Source of the DNA: Candidatus Latescibacter anaerobius SCGC AAA252-E07
GTDB taxonomy: Bacteria; Latescibacterota; Latescibacteria; Latescibacterales; Latescibacteraceae
Length of the DNA: 13,090 nt
Direction: 5' to 3'
Assembly: GCA_000403035.1 (NCBI GenBank)
Contig: AQSL01000144.1
Coordinates: 7,853 to 20,942 of the forward strand
Of the stretch, positions 1-13,012 are shown one piece after another (within the stretch, counting starts at the first letter, position 1; each line of letters opens with the position of its first letter). The notes beneath the pieces were generated by a model. The model saw only the letters and a list, made by a program, of their open reading frames with translations, was not told the DNA's origin and made no database searches. Made by a program: the position numbers and the translations under genes.

Positions 1-1
1 C

Positions 2-700
2 TTTGTATCCCGAGTTTTGAAGATGGAAGAAGATCTGGTAAAGCGTTGGGTTGACAATCGCTTGACAGTAGCTTGTAAGTATGGATTTACCTTAATATAT
101 GATGAGTTTACACGCTCAAGACCAGAGGCAAATAACATCCTCCTTTCTATATTACAGGAGAAGATGATGGATTTGCCAGTAGGACGCGGTGGTGAGGAGC
201 CATATTTAAGGGTCGATCCGGATTTCACCGCTATCTTTACCTCTAACCCTGAGGAATATGCTGGAGTCCACAGGTCTCAAGATGCTTTAAGAGACAGAAT
301 GATTACTATGGATTTGGACCACTTTGACTATGAAACTGAAGTGGCGATCACCCAGGCAAAATCCAAACTCTCTAAACCACATGCAGAAACGATAGTCGAT
401 ATCGTAAGGGGCTTGAGAGAATCTGGAAAGTGCGAATTTGCACCAACAGTTCGTGGTTGTATTATGATTGCAAAAACCCTTAAGGTTCAAAATATTACCC
501 CTTCTAAAGACGGAGCTTTTATGCAGATGTGCCAGGACATCTTAGCTTCAGAAACAAGCAGGGTTGGTTCTAAGACGAATCAAGCCAGGGTAAAAGAAGT
601 AGTTAAGGGGCTTGTCGAGAAAGAACTCGGCATAAGAAAGGCCACTGATGTTGGAAAGAAGACGGTGAAAGAGAGCGTTGTTGCTAGTACGGCCAAGTAG
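2..700 (+). CDS. gvpN: Gas vesicle AAA+ ATPase GvpN (CbbQ/NirQ/NorQ/GvpN family), 5'-truncated by the window edge (C-terminal ~230 aa)
   Basis: The frame is open from base 2 with no upstream stop, so the gene continues 5' of the window. The translation LVKRWVDNRLTVACKYGFTLIYDEFTRSRPEANNILLSILQE...YLRVDPDFTAIFTSNPEEYAGVHRSQDALRDRM matches the GvpN sensor region downstream of Walker B (LIYDEF). The Walker A motif would lie upstream of the window. Confidence 0.85.
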   Translation, partial: FVSRVLKMEEDLVKRWVDNRLTVACKYGFTLIYDEFTRSRPEANNILLSILQEKMMDLPVGRGGEEPYLRVDPDFTAIFTSNPEEYAGVHRSQDALRDRMITMDLDHFDYETEVAITQAKSKLSKPHAETIVDIVRGLRESGKCEFAPTVRGCIMIAKTLKVQNITPSKDGAFMQMCQDILASETSRVGSKTNQARVKEVVKGLVEKELGIRKATDVGKKTVKESVVASTAK

Positions 701-786
701 TCAGAATTTAGAAGAAAAACAGAGGATAGAAAGTCTGTTTTTAAACAGGCACCTTTTAGACAAATCGGTAACGGAGGTGATACAAG

Positions 787-957
787 ATGACGTTGATGCG
801 AGCATTTTCTAAGGTGGATAAAGATGGGAAGATAAAATTTCCTGGCAATATCCAGCGAGCAGCAGACTTAAAAGAAGGCCAGTTGATTGAGCTGAAGATT
901 GTAGGAGCAAGTAGAAAGAAGAATATTTTAGTTTCGGCTAAAGGTAGTGCAAGATAA
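787..957 (+). CDS. Small AbrB/SpoVT/MazE-type swapped-hairpin DNA-binding protein (56 aa), absent from the ORF track
   Basis: ATG at 787 follows a strong SD (GGAGGTGA) 6 nt upstream. The translation is MTLMRAFSKVDKDGKIKFPGNIQRAADLKEGQLIELKIVGASRKKNILVSAKGSAR. The core vDKdGrIxiPxxiRxxlxlkeGdxlElxi is the AbrB/SpoVT looped-hinge-helix fold signature. Confidence 0.6.
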   Translation: MTLMRAFSKVDKDGKIKFPGNIQRAADLKEGQLIELKIVGASRKKNILVSAKGSAR

Positions 958-1010
958 CGGCAGCGTCCCAATAGTGGGTGGAAATTGCAAAAGTGAAAAG
1001 TGTGGCAAAA

Positions 1011-1019
1011 TGATAAAAT
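1011..1019 (+). promoter_or_regulatory. Candidate extended -10 element (TGaTAAAAT) about 20 nt upstream of the SD of the 1040 ORF, lying in a tandem AAATGATA repeat
   Basis: A TGnTAAAAT motif sits in an AT-rich gap, followed by GGAG (1029-1032) and ATG at 1040. There is no convincing -35 element. Confidence 0.25.
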
Positions 1020-1039
1020 GATAATTATGGAGATAGAAA

Positions 1040-1351
1040 ATGAGAGGCGTGTCAGAAATTAGCGGTTTGCGGAGTATAAGAAGTATGGACGGTACTGGCA
1101 AAAGGTCTATCCCTCGCGTGCAAAGCTCTGCTTACCTCGATCTATATATACTACATAAAGAAAAAGATAGATTAGAGAAAGAAATCTATATTTTAGATAA
1201 AAGGAAAAAGGATATTCAGAAGAAGCTCGATGATGTCAATGAACAAATTGATAAATTGCAGAAAGCAGAAGCTGGAAGAAAAGAGAGGACTATAAAAGAG
1301 TTTAAAAAACCTTCAGAAAAAGACTGGAAGACTATGCCTCTAAAATATTAA
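1040..1351 (+). CDS. Hypothetical coiled-coil protein (103 aa), lysine/glutamate-rich
   Basis: ORF with GGAG 7 nt upstream of the ATG. The translation has heptad-like K/E-rich stretches (EKDRLEKEIYILDKRKKDIQKKLDDVNEQIDKLQKAE). No family was recognised. An alternative start is possible at M16 (nt 1085). Confidence 0.5.
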   Translation: MRGVSEISGLRSIRSMDGTGKRSIPRVQSSAYLDLYILHKEKDRLEKEIYILDKRKKDIQKKLDDVNEQIDKLQKAEAGRKERTIKEFKKPSEKDWKTMPLKY

Positions 1352-1381
1352 GAAGAAAATCATAATTCGGATGATACGATA

Positions 1382-1762
1382 ATGGATTGGAAAACAATCG
1401 ACTTCAAGAGTCAAAAGCCGGGCAAAAAGGGCGAGGTTTTGAATAACCAAATATATAGATGTGGCTTCTGTGGTGCGAAGGGATTTATGCCTTCCAGGAA
1501 GAGCACAAGGTGCCCTGTTTGTTTAGGTGTCGGGACTGTAAAGGCTCAACCTCCAGTTGTAATCTGTGCTTACTGTAATGGTTCAGGAAAATCTCATTTA
1601 AATACTGATCTTACCTGTATTGTCTGTGGTGGAAAAGGGATTGTAGGTGTACATACTAAGCAAGTCGAGATATGCCCTACATGCAAAGGTAGAGGTAGAG
1701 AAAAAGGTGGGAATCTTCCCTGTTTAATGTGCAGAGGAAAAGGAGTTATCTATAAGAAGTAA
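1382..1762 (+). CDS. Standalone DnaJ-type zinc-finger protein with six CxxCxGxG repeats (126 aa)
   Basis: Six evenly spaced motifs are present: CGFCGAKG, CPVCLGVG, CAYCNGSG, CIVCGGKG, CPTCKGRG and CLMCRGKG. This is the DnaJ central Cys-rich repeat type (DnaJ has four). The protein has no J-domain of its own. Confidence 0.8.
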   Translation: MDWKTIDFKSQKPGKKGEVLNNQIYRCGFCGAKGFMPSRKSTRCPVCLGVGTVKAQPPVVICAYCNGSGKSHLNTDLTCIVCGGKGIVGVHTKQVEICPTCKGRGREKGGNLPCLMCRGKGVIYKK

Positions 1763-1794
1763 TTATACCTTAAAAAGGCTATAGGAGGTAAGGT

Positions 1795-2328
1795 ATGGCA
1801 AAGGGAAAAAAGAAAAAGGAAGAAGATTTGGACATTGATTTTGGAATAGGAAAATTAAGTCTGGGGGGTTTATTTAAAGGTATTGAGAAATTAGTCGACC
1901 TAGCAGCAGATTTAGAAGAAGCAGGTGGCGAAATCAAAAAAGAAGGTGAAATAGACCTGAGCCATCTTAAAGAAGGCATGAAAGGTGTGTTTGGCTTCTC
2001 TATAAAGACGATGGCGGGGGAAAAGACAATTGTTGAGCCTTTCGGTAATATTAAGAAGACTCCTAAAGGACCCAAGGTTGAAGAGGAAAGAGAACCTATG
2101 GTTGATATTTTTGATGAAAAGGAAGAGGTTGTGATTATAGCAGAAATGCCAGGGATTAACGAAGAAGACATCTCGATGGATTTTAAAGGAGATATATTAG
2201 AGGTAAAAGCGGTGTATAAGGATAGAAAATACTATAAAGAAGTTTTGTTACCGGCAAAGGTGAAATCAGAGACCCTGACCTCAACTTATAAAAATGGTAT
2301 ATTAGAAGTAAGAATAAGGAAATGCTAA
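1795..2328 (+). CDS. Hsp20/alpha-crystallin-domain small heat-shock protein (GvpH-like), 177 aa
   Basis: Strong SD (AGGAGGT) precedes the ATG. The C-terminal half (PMVDIFDEKEEVVIIAEMPGINEEDISMDFKGDILEVKA...YKEVLLPAKVKSETLTSTYKNGILEVRIRK) is an alpha-crystallin domain with the characteristic terminal I/V-x-I/V-like motif. The N-terminus is charged and disordered. Confidence 0.8.
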   Translation: MAKGKKKKEEDLDIDFGIGKLSLGGLFKGIEKLVDLAADLEEAGGEIKKEGEIDLSHLKEGMKGVFGFSIKTMAGEKTIVEPFGNIKKTPKGPKVEEEREPMVDIFDEKEEVVIIAEMPGINEEDISMDFKGDILEVKAVYKDRKYYKEVLLPAKVKSETLTSTYKNGILEVRIRKC

Positions 2329-3264
2329 GTGGCATTAATTGGATTAAAAGAAGGTGCCTTAAAGTTAATTCTTTTGGGGGGAAAGGGTGGTGTAGGAAAG
2401 ACGACCTGTTCCTCAAGCACAGGTCTTTACTTAGCTAAAGATTTTAAGACGCTTCTTATCTCGACAGATCCAGCACATTCTTTATCTGATAGTTTAGGCC
2501 AGAAAGTTGGAGATGAGATAGTAGGAGTAAAGGGTGTAGAGAACCTAAGTGCTCTTGAAGTAAGCGCGGAAAAGGCTTTTTCTAAATTTAAGGTTGAATA
2601 TGAAGACCAGATAAAGAAAATCTTGGATACTTCTACGTATTTAGGCCAGGAAGACATTGATTCCATTTTCGCCTTGCCTATCCCGGGAATGGATGAGGTA
2701 ATGGGGTTTAAGACTATAGTTGATCTTATTGAAGAGGCAAGGTTTGATAAATATATTGTTGATACTGCACCCACTGGGCATGCGTTGAGACTTCTGACTT
2801 TACCAGACCTCTTGGATGACTGGATTAAAGTGATGGCAAAGATGAGATGGAAATATAGGTATATGGTTGAAACTTTTGCTGGAAAATATAAACCTGATGA
2901 AGGCGATGATTTTCTATTAAGTATGAAAAAGACGGTAAAGAGAATAGAAGGCCTTCTTAAGGATCAAAGCAGGTGCGAATTTATAGCAGTTACCATTCCA
3001 GAAGATATGGCAATTTTGGAAACGGAGAGGCTGATAAATAATCTGAATAACTATGGAATAAAGGTAAGGCAATTAGTTATAAATAATGTCATGGAATCGA
3101 GGGATTGCGGATTTTGTCAAGAACGAAGAAAAGAGCAAGAAAAATATATAAACCAAATAAAAAGAAAATTTAGCAATTTAAAAACAACAATTATAGCTTT
3201 ACAACCTCGAGAGGTTAAAGGTATAGACGCGTTAAATAATTTTAAGGAGTTGCTATTTCAGTAA
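2329..3264 (+). CDS. ArsA/Get3-family P-loop ATPase (anion-transporting ATPase-like), 311 aa
   Basis: The deviant Walker [11 protein letters not shown], the A-loop/switch [11 protein letters not shown] and switch [14 protein letters not shown] are all hallmarks of the ArsA/Get3 family. A C-terminal CGFC pair is also present. The GTG start at 2329 directly abuts the TAA stop of the Hsp20 gene, suggesting translational coupling. Confidence 0.85.
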
Positions 3265-5429
3265 TGATGAAAAAAAACACAAACCTTACTTTAAAGGTAA
3301 AAGAGGCCTTACCAAAAGATGTGGGAAGGGCAATCGCCAGGATTGACCCAGAGGATATGAAGGCCTTTTGTTTAGAGGTAGGTGATATCATCGAGATTGA
3401 AGGAAAAAGAAAAACACCAGCAAAAATAATGCCCTGTTATACTGAAGAAAGGGGTAAAAAGATTATACAGATAGACGGTATATCGAGAGAAAACGCTCAA
3501 ATAGGGCTGGATGAAAAAGTGGAGATTCATAAAATTAACCATAAACCTGCTAGTAAAATTACTCTCACACCTTTAACCGTATCAACTCTCTTACAAAGAG
3601 ATACAGATGCTAAGTATATCAGTTCGCTTATAGAGGGATTGCCTATAATCCGTGGTGATAGGGTTAGAGCTACGCTATTCGGCTCAAAGTCCTGCGATTT
3701 TAAGGTAGTAGATACCATACCCGAAGGTGTGGTATTGGTAAACCCAACTACTTTGATAAGGATGGAGACGAAAGGGGCTGGAGAAGGCAGACCGGCCAAG
3801 ATTTCATATGAAGATATCGGTGGACTTACTCCCAAAATTCAGAGGATTAGAGAGATGATAGAACTTCCACTGAGATATCCTCAGGTTTTTGAAAGATTGG
3901 GGATTGATGCGCCGAAGGGAGTTTTTCTCTATGGCCCACCGGGCACAGGAAAGACCTTAATCGCTCGTGCAGTAGCTAATGAAACAGACGCCTATTTTAC
4001 TCACATATCAGGTCCTGAGATTATGGGCAAGTTCTACGGTGAAAGTGAAGCACGTCTGCGAAGTGTATTTGAAGATGCTAAAAACCATACTCCTGCCATA
4101 ATTTTTATCGATGAAATAGATGCTATCGCGCCAAAGAGAGAAGAGATGGGTGGAGAAAAGCAGGTTGAACGCAGGGTAGTAGCTCAGCTTTTAGCCCTGA
4201 TGGATGGTTTGGAATCTCGAGGGCAGGTTATTGTTATTGGAGCTACCAATATCCCCAATACAGTTGACCCTGCTCTTCGTAGACCTGGTCGGTTTGATAG
4301 AGAGATACCCATCCCTATCCCTGATAAAAACGGAAGATTTGAGATACTTCAGATTCACACAAGGGGTATGCCTTTAGCAGAAGATGTCAGTGTAGAGAAG
4401 TTGGCTGGGATCACCCATGGATTTGTGGGTGCGGATTTGGAGGCATTAGCCAGAGAAGCGGCAATGAGCGCGTTGAGAAAGATTTTACCTAAAATCACCT
4501 TTGAATTGGCAGATATTCCTTATGAGAGTTTGATGAAGTTAGAAGTAACCATGGATAATTTTTTAGAGGCCATGAAAGAGGTTGAGCCATCGGCCATAAG
4601 AGAAGTATTTGTGGAAGTGCCGGATGTAAAGTGGGAAGATGTAGGAGGTTTAGAAAATATAAAAGAAGAGTTAAAAGAAGCTATAGAGTGGCCATTGAAA
4701 TATTCTGATACCTTTAAAAAGGCAAATACTAATCCTCCCAAAGGGATCCTACTTTATGGAATACCTGGAACAGGAAAGACACTTTTGGCCAAGGCAGTGG
4801 CTAATGAAAGCGGAGTTAATTTTTTATCCATTAAAGGGCCACAACTTATCAGCCGCTATGTTGGAGAGTCAGAGCGAGGGGTAAGAGAGATATTTAAGAA
4901 GGCAAAACAGGTAGCGCCAACAATACTTTTTATTGATGAGATAGATAGCCTTGTGCCCAGACGTGGTTCAGGTTCTACCGATTCTCATGTTACAGAAAGG
5001 GTAATAAGTCAATTTCTAACTGAGATGGATGGGATTGAAGAGCTTAAGGGAGTCGTTGTTTTAGCCGCTACTAACAGGTTAGATATAGTTGATCCTGCCA
5101 TTTTACGGAGTGGTAGATTTGACCTCTTACTTGAGTTGCCTGTGCCAGATGAAAAAACCAGGGAAGAGATATTTAAGATACATACTAAGGATAAACCCCT
5201 TTCTAAAGACGTGGATTTGAAGAGTTTAGCCAAAGAGACCGAAGATAAAGTAGGTTCTGATATTGAATTTATCTGTCGTAAGGCCTCAATGCTGGCGATA
5301 AGAAAATTTATAGAAAATCCGAGAAATAAAGATGAACTCATTATTATTAAGAAGAAGCATTTCGAAGAGGCTATTAAGATAGTAAACGAACAGAAAAAAA
5401 TGGGGGGAGAAGATGGCAAAGATTATTGA
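3264..5429 (+). CDS. Cdc48/p97/VAT-like double-ring AAA+ ATPase with N-terminal double-psi-barrel domain (721 aa)
   Basis: The N-domain [38 protein letters not shown] resembles VAT-N/Cdc48-N. The D1 domain has [17 protein letters not shown] and a second-region-of-homology arginine motif RRPGRFDRE. The D2 domain has GIPGTGKT and ILFIDEIDS. The ATG at 3264 overlaps the TAA stop of the ArsA-like gene (TAATG). Confidence 0.9.
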
Positions 5430-5565
5430 AAAAATTAAAAATCTCTTTAGTGGCAAGGTTGTCTTTAAATCAAAGTGTGGAGCAAAGAAAGAAGAGGCAA
5501 AACCAAAACAAGAAACCTCTTCCCAAGAAAAATCCGAAGAGAAAAAACAACAACCCTCAACATAA
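5413..5565 (+). CDS. Possible small lysine-rich ORF (50 aa) overlapping the 3' end of the Cdc48-like gene
   Basis: The ATG at 5413 is preceded by a G-rich SD-like run (GGGGGGAG). The translation is [50 protein letters not shown]. The region is low-complexity and A-rich, so this could be a chance ORF. Confidence 0.25.
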
Positions 5566-5618
5566 AAAAGTTAAGGGTTTCCATTTAGATGTTTGGACCT
5601 TAAAACAAGAGGTGCGAT

Positions 5619-5885
5619 ATGGGATTTGTAGAATTTGAATACCTATTAGTAATCAGTTTAGTAGTTTCATTGGTATTAGCATATTTGCCGAAGGTAAAGA
5701 TTACACTCCCGGGAGGGATTACGACAAATATTATCGTTAGCTATATTGGAGCAAGGCTTGGTGCAGTTGTGTTTGGGAATTGGCTATTTTTAACCTTTCA
5801 GGGTATTAGTATTTTGCCAGCAATATTGGGAGCGATAGTCGCGATTCTCTTAGGCAAGGCCTGTGTAGAGTGCTCTAAGAAGTAA
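5619..5885 (+). CDS. Small integral membrane protein (88 aa), resembling the GlsB/YeaQ/YmgE (transglycosylase-associated) stress membrane-protein family
   Basis: A GAGGTG SD lies 4-5 nt upstream of the ATG. The protein has hydrophobic helices with Gly-zipper-like motifs (IGARLGAVVFG, ILPAILGAIVAILLG) and a C-terminal CVEC pair. It is a paralog of the 12707-13012 product. Confidence 0.65.
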   Translation: MGFVEFEYLLVISLVVSLVLAYLPKVKITLPGGITTNIIVSYIGARLGAVVFGNWLFLTFQGISILPAILGAIVAILLGKACVECSKK

Positions 5886-5966: not shown

Positions 5967-6992
5967 GTGGCTGAAACAGAAAAATATATTTACGGAATTA
6001 TAAATTCTAATGAAGCATTATACTTTGGTTCTTTTGGAACAACTGCATGTGAGGAGGTTTATACTATTCCTTATCAAGATATTTCAGTAGTAGTAAGTAA
6101 CTCTGAAATGGTTGATTACACCATTTTACCCAAGGATGCAGTAGTCAGACATCTGTTTAAGCATCAGCAGGTAATCGAAAAAGTTATGGAGGGCTTTACA
6201 GTAATCCCCATGCGATTAGGAACATTTGCATATGATGAAGATGAAGTAAGATATATTTTGGCCAAAGCCTACCTAATGGTTAAGGACATATTTAATAAGA
6301 TATCTGATAAAATCGAGATTGATGTTGTTGCCACTTGGGGTGATTTTGATTCCGTCCTTAAAGTGATTGGAGAAGAAAAGGAGATTAAGGGATTCAGAGA
6401 AAGTCTTTTAACCAATCCTAAAGAGATAACCGTAGACAACCAGATGAAAGTGGGAGCTATGGTCAAAAACCACTTATATAAAAAAAGAGAAAAATATACT
6501 CTAGAAATACAAACATCCCTAAGCAAAATTATCCAAGGAATCAAAGTTCATGAGCTTATGAATGATGAGATGGTCTTAAATACTGCCTTTTTAATAAATA
6601 AAACTAAACAGAAAGAATTTGATAAAAAAATAGAAAAACTAAATACAAAATTTAATAACGAGTTGAACTTTAGATGTGTTGGTCCGCTACCTCCTTATAG
6701 CTTTTACACACTCGAGATCAAGAAGTGGCAATTTGAAGAGATAGATTGGGCAAGAAGAAAACTTGGGCTCCAAAACAACTTTGCAACTAAAGATGAAATA
6801 AAAAAAGCCCATCAGACAATGGCGTTTACTTTTCACCCTGACAAAAATCCCAATACTTCTGGCATAGAGAGAGAATTCGATGAGATAACAAAGGCTTATA
6901 AATTGTTGTGTGAATATTGCGAGGGAGATAGTTGTTCTTTTAGTGAGGAAGAATTCAAAAAGAACGCAATATTAGTCAAGGTAAGAGATTGA
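5967..6992 (+). CDS. gvpF: GvpF/GvpL-family gas vesicle protein fused to a C-terminal DnaJ J-domain (341 aa)
   Basis: The N-terminal ~250 aa carry GvpF/L motifs: KYIYGII, VxxHxxVIEKVMEGFTVIPMRLGTF, NTAFLINK and RCVGPLPPYSFY. Residues ~258-315 (WARRKLGLQNNFATKDEIKKAHQTMAFTFHPDKNPNTSGIEREFDEITKAYKLL) form a canonical J-domain with the HPD motif at nt 6834-6842. The tail CEYCEGDSCS is Cys-rich. GTG start with a GAGGAG SD. Confidence 0.85.
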   Translation: MAETEKYIYGIINSNEALYFGSFGTTACEEVYTIPYQDISVVVSNSEMVDYTILPKDAVVRHLFKHQQVIEKVMEGFTVIPMRLGTFAYDEDEVRYILAKAYLMVKDIFNKISDKIEIDVVATWGDFDSVLKVIGEEKEIKGFRESLLTNPKEITVDNQMKVGAMVKNHLYKKREKYTLEIQTSLSKIIQGIKVHELMNDEMVLNTAFLINKTKQKEFDKKIEKLNTKFNNELNFRCVGPLPPYSFYTLEIKKWQFEEIDWARRKLGLQNNFATKDEIKKAHQTMAFTFHPDKNPNTSGIEREFDEITKAYKLLCEYCEGDSCSFSEEEFKKNAILVKVRD

Positions 6993-6993
6993 T

Positions 6994-7764
6994 ATGGAAA
7001 AAGAAGGAAAATATATCTATTGTATTATCGCGACATCACAAGAGAGAAATTTTGGTCCTATTGGAATAGGTGAAAGAGGCGACGATGTCCTAACCATCGG
7101 CTATAATGACCTAAGCATGGTTATGAGCAATCATCCTATAGTTAAATTTGTTGTTAATCGAGAAAACATGTTAGCTCATGAGAAAGTAATTGAGGAAGTG
7201 ATGAAGGAATTTGATGGTGTGCTTCCGGTCAGGTTTGGCACGATTGCATCCAGTGCCGATGAGATAAGGAATCTTTTGGACAGAAGATATAGAGAATTTA
7301 AGACGCTGTTACGAGATATGGACCACAAGGTAGAATTAGGTGTTAAAGGCATATGGAAGGATATGGATGTAATCTTTAAAAAAATTGTAGAAGAAAATAA
7401 AGGGATCAAGAAAACAAAAGAGAATATTCAGAACGATAAAGGTAAGAAAAATATTCAAGCCAAAATGGAGATTGGCAAGATGGTCGAGCATGCCTTAGCA
7501 ATAAAGAAGGAAAAAGAGGCGGAAAGTATAGTAAATACCCTTAAAAGAGCAGCTTTTGATTATAAACTCAATAGAACCGCTGGTGATGAGATGTTTATGA
7601 ATGCTGCTTTTTTGGTTGATAAAGGTAGAGAAAAAGAGTTTGATAATATAATGGTTGACTTAAGTAACAAATACAAAGATAGAATAAAGTTTATGTATGT
7701 AGGGCCTTTACCTGTATTTAACTTTGTCAATATTGTCATTTATCCTGAAGAGTGGGAGAAATAA
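6994..7764 (+). CDS. gvpF: GvpF/GvpL-family gas vesicle protein, paralog 2 (256 aa)
   Basis: Carries the motifs EGKYIYCII, NMLAHEKVIEEVMKEFDGVLPVRFGTI, NAAFLVDK and FMYVGPLPVFNF. It starts 1 nt after the stop of the preceding gvpF-J gene. Confidence 0.85.
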   Translation: MEKEGKYIYCIIATSQERNFGPIGIGERGDDVLTIGYNDLSMVMSNHPIVKFVVNRENMLAHEKVIEEVMKEFDGVLPVRFGTIASSADEIRNLLDRRYREFKTLLRDMDHKVELGVKGIWKDMDVIFKKIVEENKGIKKTKENIQNDKGKKNIQAKMEIGKMVEHALAIKKEKEAESIVNTLKRAAFDYKLNRTAGDEMFMNAAFLVDKGREKEFDNIMVDLSNKYKDRIKFMYVGPLPVFNFVNIVIYPEEWEK

Positions 7765-8065
7765 TGGGTCTATCAGGGACAGAGGCAGAGATTATAAATT
7801 GTGTTGCTAAGTTAAGACAGGCGACCAAAGACCAAATAAGAAGAGAGAGGTGGGTTTTTCGTTAGATTATATCGGTTTTTTATGCCGATATTTAGTCAGA
7901 AAAGGTTTCCTGAATTTCTCTGGCGGCTATTATTCTTTGGCAAAGGCAGGGATAAAGATACACCTAGAAGAAGAGCCAGAGATTGATAGAGCGTTACTTA
8001 AGGAAGTTGCTGGCGAGGTTAGCTCAACAGATCGGCAGAGAATTAAAAAAACAATAAAAGGTTAG
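7764..8065 (+). pseudogene. Winged-helix (MarR/ArsR/PadR-like) small transcriptional regulator split by a -1 frameshift in a purine-rich tract (~7840-7855)
   Basis: Frame A (7764-7865) reads MGLSGTEAEIINCVAKLRQATKDQIRRERWVFR*, which is helix 1-2 of an HTH. Frame B (from 7850) reads VGFSLDYIGFLCRYLVRKGFLNFSGGYYSLAKAG..., which is the recognition helix plus wing. Both frames read RRE across aagaagagagaggtggg, so one indel in this run would restore a ~100-aa wHTH protein. The ATG overlaps the gvpF2 stop (TAATG). Confidence 0.55.
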
Positions 8066-8257: not shown

Positions 8258-9025
8258 ATGGAAGTAGCTTTAAAAGAAGGTAAATATATATACTGTATTA
8301 TTGAATCAAATAAGCCTCGTTCTTTTGGTCCTTTAGGTATTGGTGGAAGGGCTGATGAGTTGTATACAGTCTGCTTCAATGGTCTTGCCGCTTGTGTGAG
8401 CAACTCTCCCATAATAAAGTATTCTTGTTTAAGGGATAATATGCTTGCCCATGAAATGGCAATTGAGGAGGTAATGAAGGAATATACAGTCTTGCCAGTT
8501 CGATTTAATACGATTGCTGATGATGAAGAAAAGGTAAAGAAGATATTAGAAATAGATCACGATAGGTTTATAGATGCATTGAAAAATATGGAAGGTAAGA
8601 AAGAACTGGGGCTTAAAGCCATATTTAAAGAAGAAATTATTTATAAAGATATATTAGAAAGGTATGAAGATATAAGGATATTAAAAGAAAAAATAGCTCT
8701 ACTTTCACCCGAAAGAACATATTACCAACGTATGGAAATAGGAAGAATGGTGGAAGCATCTGTACAAAATGAAAGAGAGATCTGCAAAAAGGAGATATTG
8801 GATTCTTTAATACCTTTGGCAGAAGACAATAAAATCAATAATACCTATGGTGAGTTAATGATTTTAAGCGCCGCCTTTTTAGTCAACAGAGACAAAGAAG
8901 TAGAGTTTGACCGGAAGGTTGAGGAATTCAATACAAAATATGGTGATAAAATAAAATTTAAGTATGTGGGAACAATACCGCCATTTAATTTTGTAAATCT
9001 TGTCATTGAAACAGGAAAATATTAG
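8258..9025 (+). CDS. gvpF: GvpF/GvpL-family gas vesicle protein, paralog 3 (255 aa)
   Basis: Carries the motifs EGKYIYCII, NMLAHEMAIEEVMKEYTVLPVRFNTI, SAAFLVNR and FKYVGTIPPFNF. Confidence 0.85.
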   Translation: MEVALKEGKYIYCIIESNKPRSFGPLGIGGRADELYTVCFNGLAACVSNSPIIKYSCLRDNMLAHEMAIEEVMKEYTVLPVRFNTIADDEEKVKKILEIDHDRFIDALKNMEGKKELGLKAIFKEEIIYKDILERYEDIRILKEKIALLSPERTYYQRMEIGRMVEASVQNEREICKKEILDSLIPLAEDNKINNTYGELMILSAAFLVNRDKEVEFDRKVEEFNTKYGDKIKFKYVGTIPPFNFVNLVIETGKY

Positions 9026-9027
9026 AT

Positions 9028-9264
9028 ATGTTTTTAATCGATGACATATTACTTGCGCCTTTAAAGGGCGTGATTTGGATTGGGGAAAGGCTTAACGAGA
9101 TAGCAGAAAAGGAATTCTCCGATGAGGGGCGTATAAAAGAGAAACTTATGGAATTGCAACTGAAATTCGAAATGGATGAAATAAGTGAAGAAGAGTATAA
9201 TAGGCAGGAGAAAGAACTTTTAGAGCGCTTAAATGCAATTAGGAAAGCAAAGGAGGAGGTGTAA
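9028..9264 (+). CDS. gvpG: Gas vesicle protein GvpG (78 aa)
   Basis: MFLIDDILLAPLKGVIWIGERLNEIAEKE...LMELQLKFEMDEISEEEYNRQEKELLERLNAI matches the GvpG pattern: an N-terminal PxxGxxWIxE motif and LQxxFxxGEISEEE. Confidence 0.8.
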   Translation: MFLIDDILLAPLKGVIWIGERLNEIAEKEFSDEGRIKEKLMELQLKFEMDEISEEEYNRQEKELLERLNAIRKAKEEV

Positions 9265-9265
9265 A

Positions 9266-9532
9266 ATGGCTAATATTGAAGAGGCAAGAAAAGCAGTGGC
9301 AGAATTTTTAAGGAAAACTCTCAATGTTAAAGATGTAAAGGTAATTAAGACGGCAAAGGCTGGTGATGGCTGGGAAACTGAGGCTGAAGTATATGAAGAA
9401 AGCTCGTTCATAAAGTCACTCGGTCTTCCCACAAGAGTCCAGGATAGGAATATTTATGCGGTCAAACTAAATAGCAGTTTAGAAGTTGATTCCTATGAGC
9501 GCAAGGGTACAGAAGAGCAAGAGGAAAGATAA
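9266..9532 (+). CDS. gvpO: GvpO-like gas vesicle protein, paralog 1 (88 aa)
   Basis: ATG at 9266 follows an excellent SD (GGAGGAGGTG). The preferred start is downstream of the track's 9233 start, which overlaps gvpG. The architecture AVAEFLRKTL...DGWETEAEVYE...YAVKLNSSLEVDSYERK parallels GvpO (..DGW..V.V.E...Y.V..d..G.l.gY.R..). It is a paralog of the 11490-11744 product. Confidence 0.6.
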   Translation: MANIEEARKAVAEFLRKTLNVKDVKVIKTAKAGDGWETEAEVYEESSFIKSLGLPTRVQDRNIYAVKLNSSLEVDSYERKGTEEQEER

Positions 9533-9534
9533 AA

Positions 9535-10344
9535 ATGGAGGGATTATATCTTTATTGCATAAGAGAAAAAATAGAAGATGCTCCTGGAATTTCTGTAAAA
9601 GGAATTGATGGAAAGGGAGAGGTTTTTATCCTTGTTCATGGCCAGTTAGAAGCAGTGGTAAGCAAGGTTTCCTTAAAAGAATTCAGTTCTGAAGAGATTC
9701 AGAAAAAAGCCCAGGAAGACTTAAACTGGATTAAAGAAAAAGCCCTTCTCCATCAAAAGGTTATAGAAGAAGCAATGAAAAAGAACGATAAGCTCTTAGA
9801 TCTAATTCCTATGAGGTTTGGGATCATCTTTAAAGAGGAAACAAAATTAAAACAGACTCTATATAAAGATTATACCAAGATTAAAGAAACATTAGAGAGA
9901 ATTCGGGGAAAACAGGAATGGAGCCTAAAGGTGTATTTAAAAGACAAAGAAAAATTTGAAGAAGTGGTAAAAGAAAAGAATCCACTAATAAAGGAAAAGG
10001 AAAAAGAGATAACAAATTTACCTGAGGGTATGGCCTTTTTTATGGAAGAGGAGTTAAAAGAGGTTATCTTTAAAGAAGTAGATAAAGATTTAAACGATTT
10101 TGTAGAGGTTGTTTTTGAGGATTTTAAAAAGCAAGCCATGGATTCCGTTAAAAATAAGATTTTGGAAAAAGAATTAACCGGAAAACCTGAGCATATGATT
10201 TTAAACGCTGCCTATTTAATCCCTGAGGAAAAGGTTGAGAATTTTAAAAAAGAGGCTGAAATTCTCAATCAAAAGATACAAGAAAAAGGGATTTACCTTG
10301 AGTATAGCGGTCCTTGGCCACTTTATAATTTTACATCTTATTAA
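9535..10344 (+). CDS. gvpL: GvpL/GvpF-family gas vesicle protein, paralog 4 (269 aa, more divergent and GvpL-like)
   Basis: Carries the motifs LYLYCI, AVVSKV, LLHQKVIEEAMKKNDKLLDLIPMRFGII, NAAYLIPEEK and YSGPWPLYNF. The middle is K/E-rich. Confidence 0.8.
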   Translation: MEGLYLYCIREKIEDAPGISVKGIDGKGEVFILVHGQLEAVVSKVSLKEFSSEEIQKKAQEDLNWIKEKALLHQKVIEEAMKKNDKLLDLIPMRFGIIFKEETKLKQTLYKDYTKIKETLERIRGKQEWSLKVYLKDKEKFEEVVKEKNPLIKEKEKEITNLPEGMAFFMEEELKEVIFKEVDKDLNDFVEVVFEDFKKQAMDSVKNKILEKELTGKPEHMILNAAYLIPEEKVENFKKEAEILNQKIQEKGIYLEYSGPWPLYNFTSY

Positions 10345-10348
10345 ACTT

Positions 10349-10882
10349 ATGATTAAAAAAACTGATAATGTAACATTAGTAGATGCCTTAGATAAGGTTT
10401 TAGAGAAAGGCGCAGTTATCACTGGGGATATAGTGATAAGGGTAGCTGATGTGGATCTTGTCTTTTTAGGCTTACGGCTTATCCTTACATCAATTTCCAA
10501 GGCCGAAGAACTGTCTGGCAAGAGTTTCAGTGATCCAGATAAAGAGTTTACCCCTGAAGATATAGAATATATACAGAAATTACAAAGGGAGATAAGAAGA
10601 GCCGAAGAAAATATTCCTAAACTTATTGATCTAGGCAATCCTAAAAAGACAGAACAAGGTTTAGCTAAATTAATTTTAACCCTTGTTGAACTTATAAGAA
10701 GACTTATGGAGAAAGAAGCCTATAGGAGAGTAAAGAGAGGAAAGTTATCCAATATAGAAATTCAAAAATTGGGATTAAGCCTTAAGGCTGTTCAAAAAAA
10801 GATAAAAGAAGTTCAGACAATCTTTGGTATTGAGGATGAAGAGCTAAATTTAGACTTAGGTCCTTTAGGAAATTTAATGTAG
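10349..10882 (+). CDS. gvpK: Fusion of a GvpA/GvpJ-like N-terminal domain with a GvpK C-terminal domain (177 aa)
   Basis: The N-terminus MIKKTDNVTLVDALDKVLEKGAVITGDIVIRVADVDLVFLGLRLILTSISKAEEL is a GvpA-family core. The C-terminus GLAKLILTLVELIRRLMEKEAYRRVKRGKLSNIEIQKLGLSL...EDEELNLDLGPLGNLM matches the GvpK signature (LxLTxVELLRxLxERQAxRR...LGPLG). The ATG is 4 nt after the gvpL stop. The track's upstream extension (10235) overlaps gvpL and is rejected. Confidence 0.7.
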   Translation: MIKKTDNVTLVDALDKVLEKGAVITGDIVIRVADVDLVFLGLRLILTSISKAEELSGKSFSDPDKEFTPEDIEYIQKLQREIRRAEENIPKLIDLGNPKKTEQGLAKLILTLVELIRRLMEKEAYRRVKRGKLSNIEIQKLGLSLKAVQKKIKEVQTIFGIEDEELNLDLGPLGNLM

Positions 10883-10892
10883 GAGAAAAAAG

Positions 10893-11156
10893 ATGCATAA
10901 AGAAGGAGCTAAAATAAATTGTGTAACATTTCAAAAGCAAGAAAAGGTAATAAAGGATATTACTGATAAGATTAATATGGCTAAGGGAGTGCGAGAGAAA
11001 GCGATATTTGCCGAAGAATTACAGAAAGAAGTAGATATGCTTTTAACTTGTCCGGATTATGATGATAAAAAATTAGACTGTAAGAATTGTCGTTTCATTG
11101 CAAATTTGCGTAAGAAAACCTCATGTTTAATTATAAAAGCTAAAAAGTTAGTATAA
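10893..11156 (+). CDS. Hypothetical small Cys-containing protein (87 aa)
   Basis: An AGGAG SD lies 7 nt upstream. Cysteines sit at positions 10, 53, 62, 65 and 77 (CPDYDDKKLDCKNCRF...C). No family was recognised. It is tightly packed between gvpK and the gvpJ-like gene. Confidence 0.5.
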   Translation: MHKEGAKINCVTFQKQEKVIKDITDKINMAKGVREKAIFAEELQKEVDMLLTCPDYDDKKLDCKNCRFIANLRKKTSCLIIKAKKLV

Positions 11157-11173: not shown

Positions 11174-11479
11174 ATGTCAGAACAAAAAATGATGCACGCC
11201 ACAAATGCTACTAATCTTGCTGATATCTTAGAGCGGGTATTAGACAAGGGAATTGTAATTGCCGGAGATATCCAGATTAAAATTGCCGATGTTGAACTTT
11301 TAACGATAAAGATAAGGTTATTGGTTGCCTCTGTGGATAAGGCAATGGAGATGGGTATAAACTGGTGGCAAACTGATAGTTTTCTTTCCTCAAAAGCAAA
11401 AGAGGCTGAGATAGAAAATGAAAACACAGAGCTGAAAAAGAGATTAGGAAAATTAGAGGAGAAGATTAAAAGTGCATAA
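11174..11479 (+). CDS. gvpJ: GvpA-family minor gas vesicle protein (GvpJ/GvpM-like), 101 aa
   Basis: LADILERVLDKGIVIAGDIQIKIADVELLTIKIRLLVASVDKAMEMG is the GvpA/J/M core. It has a coiled-coil C-terminal tail. GGAG SD lies 6 nt upstream. Confidence 0.85.
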   Translation: MSEQKMMHATNATNLADILERVLDKGIVIAGDIQIKIADVELLTIKIRLLVASVDKAMEMGINWWQTDSFLSSKAKEAEIENENTELKKRLGKLEEKIKSA

Positions 11480-11489
11480 GGAGCAGAAA

Positions 11490-11744
11490 ATGGAAATTAA
11501 AGATATTGTGGAAATTGCTAAGGCGGGGTTGGTTCAACTTACCGGATTTAGTTCTCCCACTGCGATAGGAATAAACAAAGAAGCGGATATATGGCACATT
11601 ACTGTAGAAATAATAGAAAAACCTTCGGAAGCAGTTAATCTGGAGCTTCTTGGAATTTATGATGTCCGAATAGATGCTTCTGGAAATCTTCTTGGTTATG
11701 AGAAAATAAGGATGAGGAAGCGTGGTGATGTTCAAAAAGGGTAA
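11490..11744 (+). CDS. gvpO: GvpO-like gas vesicle protein, paralog 2 (84 aa)
   Basis: AAGGAG lies 6 nt upstream of the ATG at 11490. The C-terminus VNLELLGIYDVRIDASGNLLGYEKIRMRKRGDVQKG closely matches the GvpO C-terminal motif (L.asY.V..D..G.L.gY.RvRRYERG). Confidence 0.65.
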   Translation: MEIKDIVEIAKAGLVQLTGFSSPTAIGINKEADIWHITVEIIEKPSEAVNLELLGIYDVRIDASGNLLGYEKIRMRKRGDVQKG

Positions 11745-12569: not shown

Positions 12570-12706
12570 ATATGTTTGCCAATTGAAGTATATTTCCACA
12601 CATTAACCGGGGAGATACTACCGAGTACAGGGAACATCACGAGCCGCCCGTTTCCGAAATAATTCCTTGAATCCCGGAGAACTCATAACTGAAGGGGGTG
12701 AAAGGT

Positions 12707-13012
12707 ATGATTTATGTGGGGTTTTTACCGTTTTTGTATCTGTTAATCATCGGGATAGTAGTTTCTTTGATACTGTTTTTTGTGCCGAAGATCACGGTTA
12801 AACTTCCCGGAGGGTATCCCGTCAATTTAATTGCTGGCTATGTCGGTGCCTGGGTAGGAACGCCTGTATTTGGCAAATGGGAGTTTTTGACCCGCGGTGA
12901 GATAAGTATTATCCCTGCTATACTGGGTGCTATCGCGGCGATTCTCTTGGCTAATTCCTGTGCAGAATGCTGTAGGAAATATGGAGAAAAACAGACAGGA
13001 CAACAAGGATAA
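12707..13012 (+). CDS. Small integral membrane protein (101 aa), second GlsB/YeaQ/YmgE-like paralog
   Basis: The ATG at 12707 is 6 nt after AGGGGGTGA. The track's GTG at 12698 is less likely. The product aligns with the 5619-5885 product (VPKITVKLPGGYPVNLIAGYVGAWVGTPVFGKWEFLT...IIPAILGAIAAILLANSCAEC versus LPKVKITLPGGITTNIIVSYIGARLGAVVFGNWLFLT...ILPAILGAIVAILLGKACVEC). Confidence 0.7.
   Translation: MIYVGFLPFLYLLIIGIVVSLILFFVPKITVKLPGGYPVNLIAGYVGAWVGTPVFGKWEFLTRGEISIIPAILGAIAAILLANSCAECCRKYGEKQTGQQG

Follow-up and report, generated by a model that had tools for sequence, protein, structure and literature searches.

We analysed a 13,090-nt stretch of contig AQSL01000144.1 from Candidatus Latescibacter anaerobius SCGC AAA252-E07 (positions 7,853 to 20,942 of the forward strand), here called the window and numbered from its first letter. 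The window is a gas-vesicle (gvp) gene cluster with every gene on the forward strand (+); the gene identities come from Pfam and NCBIfam profile searches. It encodes four GvpF/L proteins, GvpG, two GvpO-like proteins, one GvpJ-GvpK fusion and one GvpA/J protein, along with three ATPases: GvpN, an ArsA-family protein and a double-ring AAA+ ATPase of the Cdc48/VAT family. The subject of this analysis is the last of these, its place in bacterial gvp clusters and its possible role there. The gene and its parts are as follows (aa, amino acids; ORF, open reading frame).

3264-5429 (+): Cdc48/VAT-family double-ring AAA+ ATPase, 721 aa, from the ORF, Pfam, NCBIfam and a structure-sequence match
3288-3779 (+): Cdc48 N domain, aa 9-172, comprising the CDC48_N double-psi barrel (PF02359, 91.6 bits) and CDC48_2 (PF02933, 46 bits)
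3933-4304 (+): motifs of the Cdc48 D1 ring, from motif positions, conservation across 75 orthologs and alignment with VAT D1
4758-5129 (+): motifs of the Cdc48 D2 ring, from motif positions, conservation across 75 orthologs and alignment with VAT D2

The initial annotation described the product as a full Cdc48-type enzyme with a Cdc48-N domain and two rings, D1 and D2, each with Walker A/B motifs and arginine fingers, and the profile searches agree. CDC48_N matches at aa 9-92 (cutoff 35.1 bits) and CDC48_2 at aa 114-172 (cutoff 22.4 bits), followed by two stretches of Pfam AAA (306 bits) and two of AAA_lid_3, and with 943.6 bits the protein clears the curated cutoff (802.65) of the NCBIfam model TIGR01243, 'CDC48 family AAA ATPase'. 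Among solved structures, Thermoplasma VAT is the nearest (5g4f, 748 bits across query residues 2-707), with p97 structures next at ∼642 bits. Since the similarity to solved VAT and p97 structures extends over the full length, the fold can be considered settled, and E-values of 1e-224 to 1e-284 rule out chance. At the level of sequence similarity, the N-D1-D2 architecture of a Cdc48/VAT-family AAA+ ATPase is confirmed. Two other assignments were rejected. The match to the anti-phage ATPase IteA reached 236 bits against a cutoff of 510, and membership of the ClpB/Hsp104-type disaggregases did not hold, as the top Pfam and NCBIfam matches were of the Cdc48, PAN and FtsH types and ClpA scored 40 bits against a cutoff of 993.

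Both rings are complete in their catalytic motifs, and each has an aromatic pore loop. D1 has a Walker A motif GPPGTGKT (aa 224-231), a pore loop KFYGESE (aa 256-262; K256-F257-Y258), a Walker B motif (aa 279-287; D283-E284), a sensor-1 residue N329 and arginine fingers (aa 336-347), and also holds a 19-letter stretch and RRPGRFDRE. The corresponding elements of D2 are GIPGTGKT (aa 499-506), RYVGESE (aa 531-537; R531-Y532-V533), Walker B (aa 554-562; D558-E559), N604 and arginine fingers (aa 611-622), with another 19-letter stretch and LRSGRFD. The Walker and arginine-finger motifs of both rings are intact across 75 orthologs, and the aromatic pore-loop residue is likewise kept in both, as K[FY]Y in D1, which is the VAT pattern, and as [KR]Y[VI] in D2. 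Of the folded parts of the protein, the N domain is conserved least, with a mean identity to the window protein of 60% in the ortholog alignment. From its similarity to VAT the enzyme is predicted to be a hexameric-type threading ATPase with unfolding activity.

None of the 75 orthologs (0/75) matches the HbYX proteasome-docking pattern [LIVMFWA]-Y-x at the C-terminus, the window protein ending in ...GKDY, and Pfam scans and gene calls showed no protease gene in the cluster. For these two reasons a proteasome or protease partner was rejected, and Cdc48 most likely releases what it unfolds, as far as can be predicted.

The gene is placed tightly within the putative operon. The stop codon of the ArsA gene (TAA, 3262-3264) overlaps the Cdc48 start codon (ATG, 3264-3266) by one base, which bears out the overlapping start described in the initial annotation, and AGGAG lies at 3245-3249, 14 nt 5' of the ATG. 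Promoter and terminator scans of the window gave counts at or below the shuffled expectation, and the terminator-like sites on the forward strand all lie inside coding sequences. A hairpin with a 10-bp stem at 5552-5579, ∼120 nt past the Cdc48 stop, resembles a terminator on the minus strand only. A 50-aa ORF rich in lysine and glutamate (5413-5565) overlaps Cdc48 at its 3' end. The G+C content is 0.42-0.44 in the Cdc48 gene (3501-5000) and 0.33-0.39 in the rest of the cluster, and the GC skew on the coding strand is strongly positive across the whole window.

The initial annotation had proposed a survey of co-occurrence with gvpA. For this we took the 80 closest species-level loci (contigs from one genome per species), whose Cdc48 proteins are 64-86% identical to that of the window, and scanned them with the window's own proteins; taxon labels are taken from the record titles of metagenome-assembled genomes. 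Gvp genes lie beside Cdc48 in 67 of the 80 loci, where they keep a conserved order on a single strand. The labels are of ∼19 phylum-level kinds: Nitrospirota, Nitrospinota, Omnitrophota, Planctomycetota, Bacteroidota, Ignavibacteria, Chlorobiaceae, Cloacimonadota, Marinimicrobia, Atribacterota, Acidobacteriota/Aminicenantes, Elusimicrobia, Victivallales, Desulfobacterota, Chloroflexota, Actinomycetota, Clostridia, Acetothermia, and Patescibacteria. The conserved order is GvpA/J, (DnaJ-type zinc-finger protein), GvpN, coiled-coil protein, (zinc-finger protein), Hsp20, (ArsA), Cdc48, GvpF (J-domain fusion), GvpF, GvpF, GvpG, GvpO, GvpF, GvpJK. On the same strand as Cdc48 and upstream of it, GvpN is found in 55 loci and Hsp20 in 65 of 81. 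ArsA is directly upstream in 30 loci (median gap between matches 20 nt), and a GvpF gene follows Cdc48 within 300 nt in 52; the related clusters have three to five GvpF/L paralogs each. Four of the 13 loci without a Gvp match are short contigs that end inside the Hsp20/ArsA/Cdc48 stretch; the clear negatives are those of Synergistales. The Nitrospinota metagenome-assembled genome JACRGN01 has two contigs (L015 and L070), each with an Hsp20-ArsA-Cdc48 stretch, which suggests two cluster copies or strain variants binned together.

The survey was also run in reverse, on metagenomic loci picked through GvpN and reaching at least 3.5 kb downstream of it (n = 30). Cdc48 is present in 28 of these, and the two exceptions are contigs ending right after Hsp20 or ArsA. 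Cdc48 is thus a fixed, near-constant component of a widespread bacterial gvp cluster type. The initial annotation had also allowed for a housekeeping Cdc48 with synteny unrelated to gvp genes. Because of the conserved synteny and the GvpN-selected loci, we reject a housekeeping enzyme that merely adjoins gvp genes for the clade of the window protein (the main clade), although this description is true for Synergistales and for some members of a sister group. Searches for a cultured carrier inside the main clade with a Chlorobiaceae ortholog and a Desulfobacteraceae profile gave metagenome-assembled genomes only.

In a neighbour-joining tree with 90 outgroup representatives, all 75 full-length Cdc48 proteins from the loci form one clade. 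Of the named outgroups, archaeal Cdc48 proteins (Thermoplasmatota, Halobacteria, Asgard) and a Dadabacteria group come nearest, and in an exhaustive search of 50%-identity representatives nothing outside the query's own cluster exceeded ∼60% identity. In the same type of tree the Synergistales copies are a subclade nested within the main clade and the Scalindua copy is nested among Desulfobacteraceae; these nested copies lacking gvp neighbours are most simply read as putative secondary losses of the linkage. Pairwise divergence of Cdc48 tracks that of ArsA (r = 0.80), Hsp20 (0.77), GvpG (0.71), GvpN (0.65), and GvpF (0.55; Mantel tests, all p = 0.001).

Linkage to gvp genes is also seen outside the main clade. 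In two cultured methanotrophs, Methylocella tundrae T4 and Methylosinus sp. C49, plasmid gvp clusters end in a Cdc48 gene, the order being sigma-54 regulator, GvpF, kinase, response regulator, GvpA, GvpN, GvpF, GvpG, GvpJ, Gvp, Hsp20/GvpH, hypothetical protein, Cdc48. The Cdc48 genes are at 149291-151486 of NZ_CP139088.1 in M. tundrae T4 and at 11658-13838 of NZ_AP022334.1 in Methylosinus sp. C49. These Cdc48 proteins (RefSeq 'CDC48 family AAA ATPase') are 50-52% identical to the window protein, and the tree places them in the sister group of the main clade. The sister group is mixed: the distant relative P0178 is gvp-linked, while P0153 and P0162 are not. An equally distant Sinorhizobium copy, placed by the tree with archaeal representatives, is not gvp-linked either. 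Pfam gave no match for the 'hypothetical' genes beside Cdc48 in the Methylocella cluster and the P0178 locus. The plasmid collection contained no member of the main clade, every match being below 60% identity. In total, at least three separate Cdc48 lineages are gvp-linked; the linkage recurs across the bacterial Cdc48 radiation and is near-constant only in the clade of the window protein.

The other genes identified in the window are the following.

17-700 (+): GvpN, C-terminal part, a MoxR/CbbQ-type AAA+ ATPase (TIGR02640 gas_vesic_GvpN, 213 bits, profile positions 85-261; Pfam AAA_5); the gene is cut by the window start
1040-1351 (+): coiled-coil protein, 103 aa, with a weak match to the Pfam coiled-coil family DUF7491 only; placed by tblastn directly after GvpN in most related loci
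1382-1762 (+): DnaJ-type zinc-finger protein, 126 aa, with CXXCXGXG repeats (Pfam DnaJ_CXXCXGXG, 40.4 bits)
1795-2328 (+): Hsp20/GvpH-like small heat-shock protein (Pfam HSP20 31.3 bits, GvpH 22.9 bits; NCBIfam Hsp20 139.7 bits)
2329-3264 (+): ArsA/Get3-family ATPase, single-domain, 311 aa (Pfam ArsA_ATPase 277 bits; TIGR00345 276 bits)
5967-6992 (+): GvpF/L with a C-terminal J domain, the first gvp gene 3' of Cdc48 (Pfam GvpL_GvpF 185.5 bits and DnaJ 46.2 bits, aa 266-315)
6994-7764 (+): GvpF/L paralog (Pfam GvpL_GvpF 206.7 bits)
8258-9025 (+): GvpF/L paralog (Pfam GvpL_GvpF 209.3 bits)
9028-9264 (+): GvpG (Pfam GvpG 81.1 bits)
9266-9532 (+): GvpO-like protein, from the gene call and a weak Pfam GvpO match (22 bits); kept as 'O1' in related loci
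9535-10344 (+): GvpF/L paralog (Pfam GvpL_GvpF 188 bits)
10298-10882 (+): GvpJ-GvpK fusion (Pfam Gas_vesicle 48.4 bits and GvpK 95.6 bits; boundaries from the gene call)
11174-11479 (+): GvpA/J/M-family protein, 101 aa (Pfam Gas_vesicle 63.6 bits)
11472-11744 (+): GvpO (Pfam GvpO 47.1 bits)

Several further observations concern this part of the cluster. The combination of a GvpJ-like Gas_vesicle domain and a GvpK domain in one protein recurs in many related loci, sometimes twice per locus. The GvpJ-GvpK gene is followed by a cysteine-rich 87-aa ORF (10893-11156; CPDY...CKNCRF) that has no Pfam or NCBIfam match and is kept at this place in some dozen related loci. A pair of small membrane proteins, paralogous to each other and with a weak match to Transgly_assoc/GlsB-like proteins in Pfam, is encoded at 5619-5885, between Cdc48 and the GvpF-J gene, and at 12698-13012; among the scanned loci this pair is present only in the source contig, and it looks like a local insertion. 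Small ORFs at 787-957, 5413-5565, and 7850-8065 have no Pfam match, and an AbrB-like assignment of the first is unsupported. No recognisable regulator gene was found among the window genes by Pfam. Past the window end, the source contig (L001, 11495-13036) carries an IS110-family transposase, a second ArsA-family gene and an IS1595-family transposase; transposases beyond the cluster fit a mobile gvp island.

Chaperone-type proteins are abundant around Cdc48. The GvpF-J fusion is found widely, a single tblastn alignment covering both the GvpF and the J parts in 48 related loci. GvpF is the protein that binds GvpA (PMC9501494), and its J domain would imply recruitment of Hsp70 to a GvpA-binding protein; a literature search found no paper describing GvpF fused to DnaJ or a J domain in a gas-vesicle context. 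Around GvpN, many loci have the pattern zinc-finger protein, GvpN, coiled-coil protein, zinc-finger protein, and neither the DnaJ-type zinc-finger protein nor the 103-aa coiled-coil protein has a Gvp name. The Hsp20 of the Methylosinus cluster is named GvpH by RefSeq, and haloarchaeal GvpH keeps GvpM from aggregating (PMC9501494). GvpA itself aggregates and is proteotoxic when assembly factors are missing (PMC12848028).

In one Desulfobacterota subclade, Hsp70 paralogs flank the Cdc48-containing gvp cluster, bracketing it in L082 and L083 and lying at its downstream end in L054 and L080. The flanking Hsp70 regions of L082, on a contig of 8.16 Mb, are at 1-4049 and 19333-21045, and one of the paralogs, of 933 aa, contains a DUF3731 domain; this cluster has a pair of histidine kinase and response regulator as well. 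As only these four loci from a single subclade have it, a cluster-encoded Hsp70 was rejected as a general feature.

Much of this neighbourhood has been seen before. Castillo and Saier (2010; PMC2963123) described ArsA homologues, together with Hsp20, as conserved members of gvp clusters in Chlorobi, Bacteroidetes, and Deltaproteobacteria. The window has this ArsA-Hsp20 neighbourhood too, but their gvp-associated ArsA is described as a two-domain protein of ∼600 aa, while that of the window is a single-domain protein of 311 aa, and a Cdc48-type gene is not mentioned there. Adjacent double ArsA matches in a few related loci (L032, L052, and L135) could represent the two-domain form. The initial annotation regarded GvpN as the only ATPase of canonical gvp clusters, which does not stand, since ArsA-type ATPases had been described in 2010 and one is encoded directly upstream of Cdc48 here. 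On the other hand, it rightly stated that Cdc48 is present in addition to GvpN. GvpN, an AAA+ ATPase of the same putative operon, belongs to the MoxR/CbbQ type (AAA_5); it has a single ring and lacks both an N domain and aromatic threading loops. Cdc48 adds to GvpN rather than replacing it.

Comparison with studied relatives shows what is ordinary and what is unusual about the enzyme. Similar to VAT of Thermoplasma acidophilum and archaeal Cdc48, it has the full-length N-D1-D2 arrangement, its D1 loop KFYGESE corresponding to KYYGQSE of VAT and its D2 loop RYVGESE aligning with KWVGESE. Unlike archaeal Cdc48, to which it is ∼50-57% identical, it is bacterial, lacks an HbYX tail and has its gene within a putative gas-vesicle operon instead of standing alone. 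It shares family and fold with eukaryotic p97/VCP/Cdc48, which provides a precedent for pulling proteins from stable assemblies. However, the window cluster lacks a ubiquitin system and adaptors of the UBX or Ufd1-Npl4 type, and the window protein lacks the C-terminal tail of p97. The D1 pore loop of p97 is non-aromatic, whereas that of the window protein is aromatic. Cpa, the Cdc48-like protein of actinobacteria, is reported to be a proteasome partner; it is likewise a bacterial member of the family, and by its description it is set apart from the window clade, which has no HbYX tail and occurs in a gvp context. The protein itself is therefore an ordinary member of the Cdc48/VAT family, plainly visible in the RefSeq annotation. 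Undescribed in the literature searched is its place in gas-vesicle biology, in a type of gvp cluster that has a Cdc48 unfoldase and a suite of chaperones built in. A full-text literature search, which leaves room for an earlier mention elsewhere, found no paper linking Cdc48 to gas vesicles or gvp clusters; mentions of Cdc48 that surfaced beside gas-vesicle literature were unrelated, such as Ni-NTA contaminants in Haloferax.

Observations on the enzyme comprise its identity, the intact catalytic and pore-loop residues, the missing proteasome-docking tail, the conserved synteny and the co-divergence with gvp genes. In view of its neighbours, we propose that Cdc48 of this clade may be a dedicated unfoldase or disaggregase that serves aggregation-prone GvpA-family proteins independently of the proteasome, with the neighbouring Hsp20/GvpH and GvpF-J as partners; substrate, partners and direction of hand-off are inferred, and we put the chances of this proposal at about even. 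Driven by ATP and without a proteasome, Cdc48 would act on the very hydrophobic shell proteins of the GvpA/J/M family. Hsp20/GvpH, encoded just upstream, would hold off-pathway or damaged GvpA-family protein, as ArsA/Get3 perhaps would too. The Cdc48 ring would then take the held protein via its N domain and thread it past the aromatic D1 and D2 pore loops. Finally, the GvpA-binding GvpF encoded just downstream would recapture the released monomers, with its J domain recruiting Hsp70, and the monomers would enter growing vesicles. Extraction or recycling of GvpA, as the initial annotation suggested, is a plausible candidate role for Cdc48 that fits the surrounding chaperone genes.

The proposed logic would be that of ClpB/Hsp104 acting with small heat-shock proteins (IbpA/B) and DnaK/DnaJ, where the small heat-shock protein holds, the double-ring AAA+ enzyme threads and the J-domain/Hsp70 pair takes part. 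The three kinds of components are all encoded in or around these gvp clusters, but the likeness would be functional only, as the window protein has no Clp_N or M-domain families among its best Pfam matches.

A number of observations weigh against a dedicated gas-vesicle enzyme. The Gvp inventories of Halobacterium, cyanobacteria, Bacillus megaterium, and Serratia (PMC9501494) do not include Cdc48; these well-studied clusters make vesicles without it, and therefore it is not universally needed. Cdc48 is co-inherited with core gvp genes, but shared vertical descent gives the same mirror-tree correlation, and the trees are distance-based and carry no support values. Only 13 residues, mostly conservative, separate gvp-linked from gvp-free copies, with no concentration in the N domain, and therefore nothing in the sequence marks gas-vesicle specificity. 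In the two Synergistales loci examined, Cdc48 occurs without gvp genes in a housekeeping setting between an aminotransferase and an SLT transglycosylase. On a plasmid of Natrinema thermotolerans (CP031304.1; L164, 3768-6277) an Hsp20 gene and the start of a Cdc48-family gene share 4 nt, with no gvp gene nearby, and the Scalindua locus L072 has Hsp20 matches on both sides of Cdc48 and no gvp genes in the available sequence. The Synergistales copies and the Hsp20-Cdc48 pairs outside gvp clusters thus call for caution in regarding the enzyme as strictly gas-vesicle-specific; Hsp20 and Cdc48 may have been a functional pair before gvp clusters recruited them.

The same observations could be taken further, to a generic stress-proteostasis cassette in which the Hsp20-Cdc48 pair rides a mobile gvp island and buffers a general proteotoxic cost with no Gvp-specific recognition. 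The gvp-free pair of Natrinema, the Hsp20 matches flanking Cdc48 in Scalindua, the solitary Cdc48 of Synergistales, the few residues that tell the two kinds of copies apart and the sister-group relatives in unrelated contexts all agree with it. But a mere passenger would be expected to be lost often, while Cdc48 is near-constant in the GvpN-selected loci (28/30); moreover, in the main clade it lies mid-operon between gvp genes and not at the edge, and the gvp-linked lineages number at least three. We consider such a cassette unlikely. Alternatively, Cdc48 might be an assembly or remodelling motor on the nascent vesicle, stripping and recycling a GvpF/G/J/K/L nucleation scaffold or loosening GvpA ribs at the growth zone in the manner of NSF or p97. 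Disassembly of complexes is a classic activity of the family (p97, NSF), the gene lies between GvpN and a block of three GvpF/L paralogs with GvpG, and three to five such paralogs per cluster could build a large scaffold requiring recycling. In addition, GvpN is needed for the enlargement of bicones into cylinders (PMC9501494). Yet model clusters assemble vesicles without Cdc48, its tightest linkage is to the holdase and targeting factors Hsp20 and ArsA and not to scaffold genes, and in the methanotrophs it is the last gene of the cluster, after Hsp20, so that we grant a motor of this kind some weight as a tentative but rather unlikely alternative.

Two further readings place the action of Cdc48 on the finished shell. 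As a putative ubiquitin-independent 'segregase' of the GvpA shell lattice, to which Hsp20/GvpH and perhaps ArsA/Get3 would present substrate, it might pull subunits from assembled or collapsed vesicles for re-use; we hold this to be improbable, but if true it would be the first enzyme known to turn gas vesicles over actively, and acoustic reporter genes would gain a genetically encodable eraser and recycler. The other is active disassembly, in which GvpA would be extracted from intact or collapsed shells either to cut buoyancy on demand or to reclaim protein, letting these anaerobes remove very stable vesicles. The threading-enzyme features of Cdc48 suit this, extracted protein could be reused given that there is no protease partner, a histidine kinase and response regulator adjoin Cdc48 in some clusters, and the carriers are mostly from groundwater, lake, and sediment metagenome assemblies. 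There is, however, no sign that assembled shells are accessible to Cdc48, its position in the same operon as the assembly genes argues against antagonism unless it is regulated post-translationally, and computation does not separate this possibility from quality control; it appears distinctly doubtful. Least of all do we expect a regulatory unfoldase that removes a transcription factor or an assembly inhibitor; the model here would be the haloarchaeal NTPase GvpD, in the presence of which the activator GvpE is lost (PMC9501494). Sigma-54 and two-component regulators adjoin the methanotroph clusters and the L082 cluster, but the window has no recognisable regulator gene, Cdc48 is unrelated to GvpD, and the dense chaperone neighbourhood suits proteostasis better than gene regulation; this reading is highly improbable.

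An unfoldase or disaggregase for GvpA-family proteins would bear on several fields. For AAA+ biology, the clade provides a bacterial Cdc48 that has no ubiquitin system and whose candidate substrate is narrow and identifiable. For bioengineering, chaperone-rich clusters may supply helper genes for heterologous gas-vesicle expression, because aggregation and proteotoxicity of GvpA limit such expression (PMC12848028) and a large cluster-mining study on purpose chose gvp clusters with few non-gvp genes (PMC10344784). The finding is directly testable in the cultured carriers Methylocella tundrae T4 and Methylosinus sp. C49. In present assembly models GvpN, listed in a recent review as the energy-delivering Gvp (PMC9501494), is the only energy-consuming protein, and chaperoning by GvpF, GvpH, and similar proteins is treated as ATP-independent. 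The near-constant presence of Cdc48 implies that many uncultivated anaerobes build or maintain their vesicles with an extra ATP-driven step, be it quality control or recycling.

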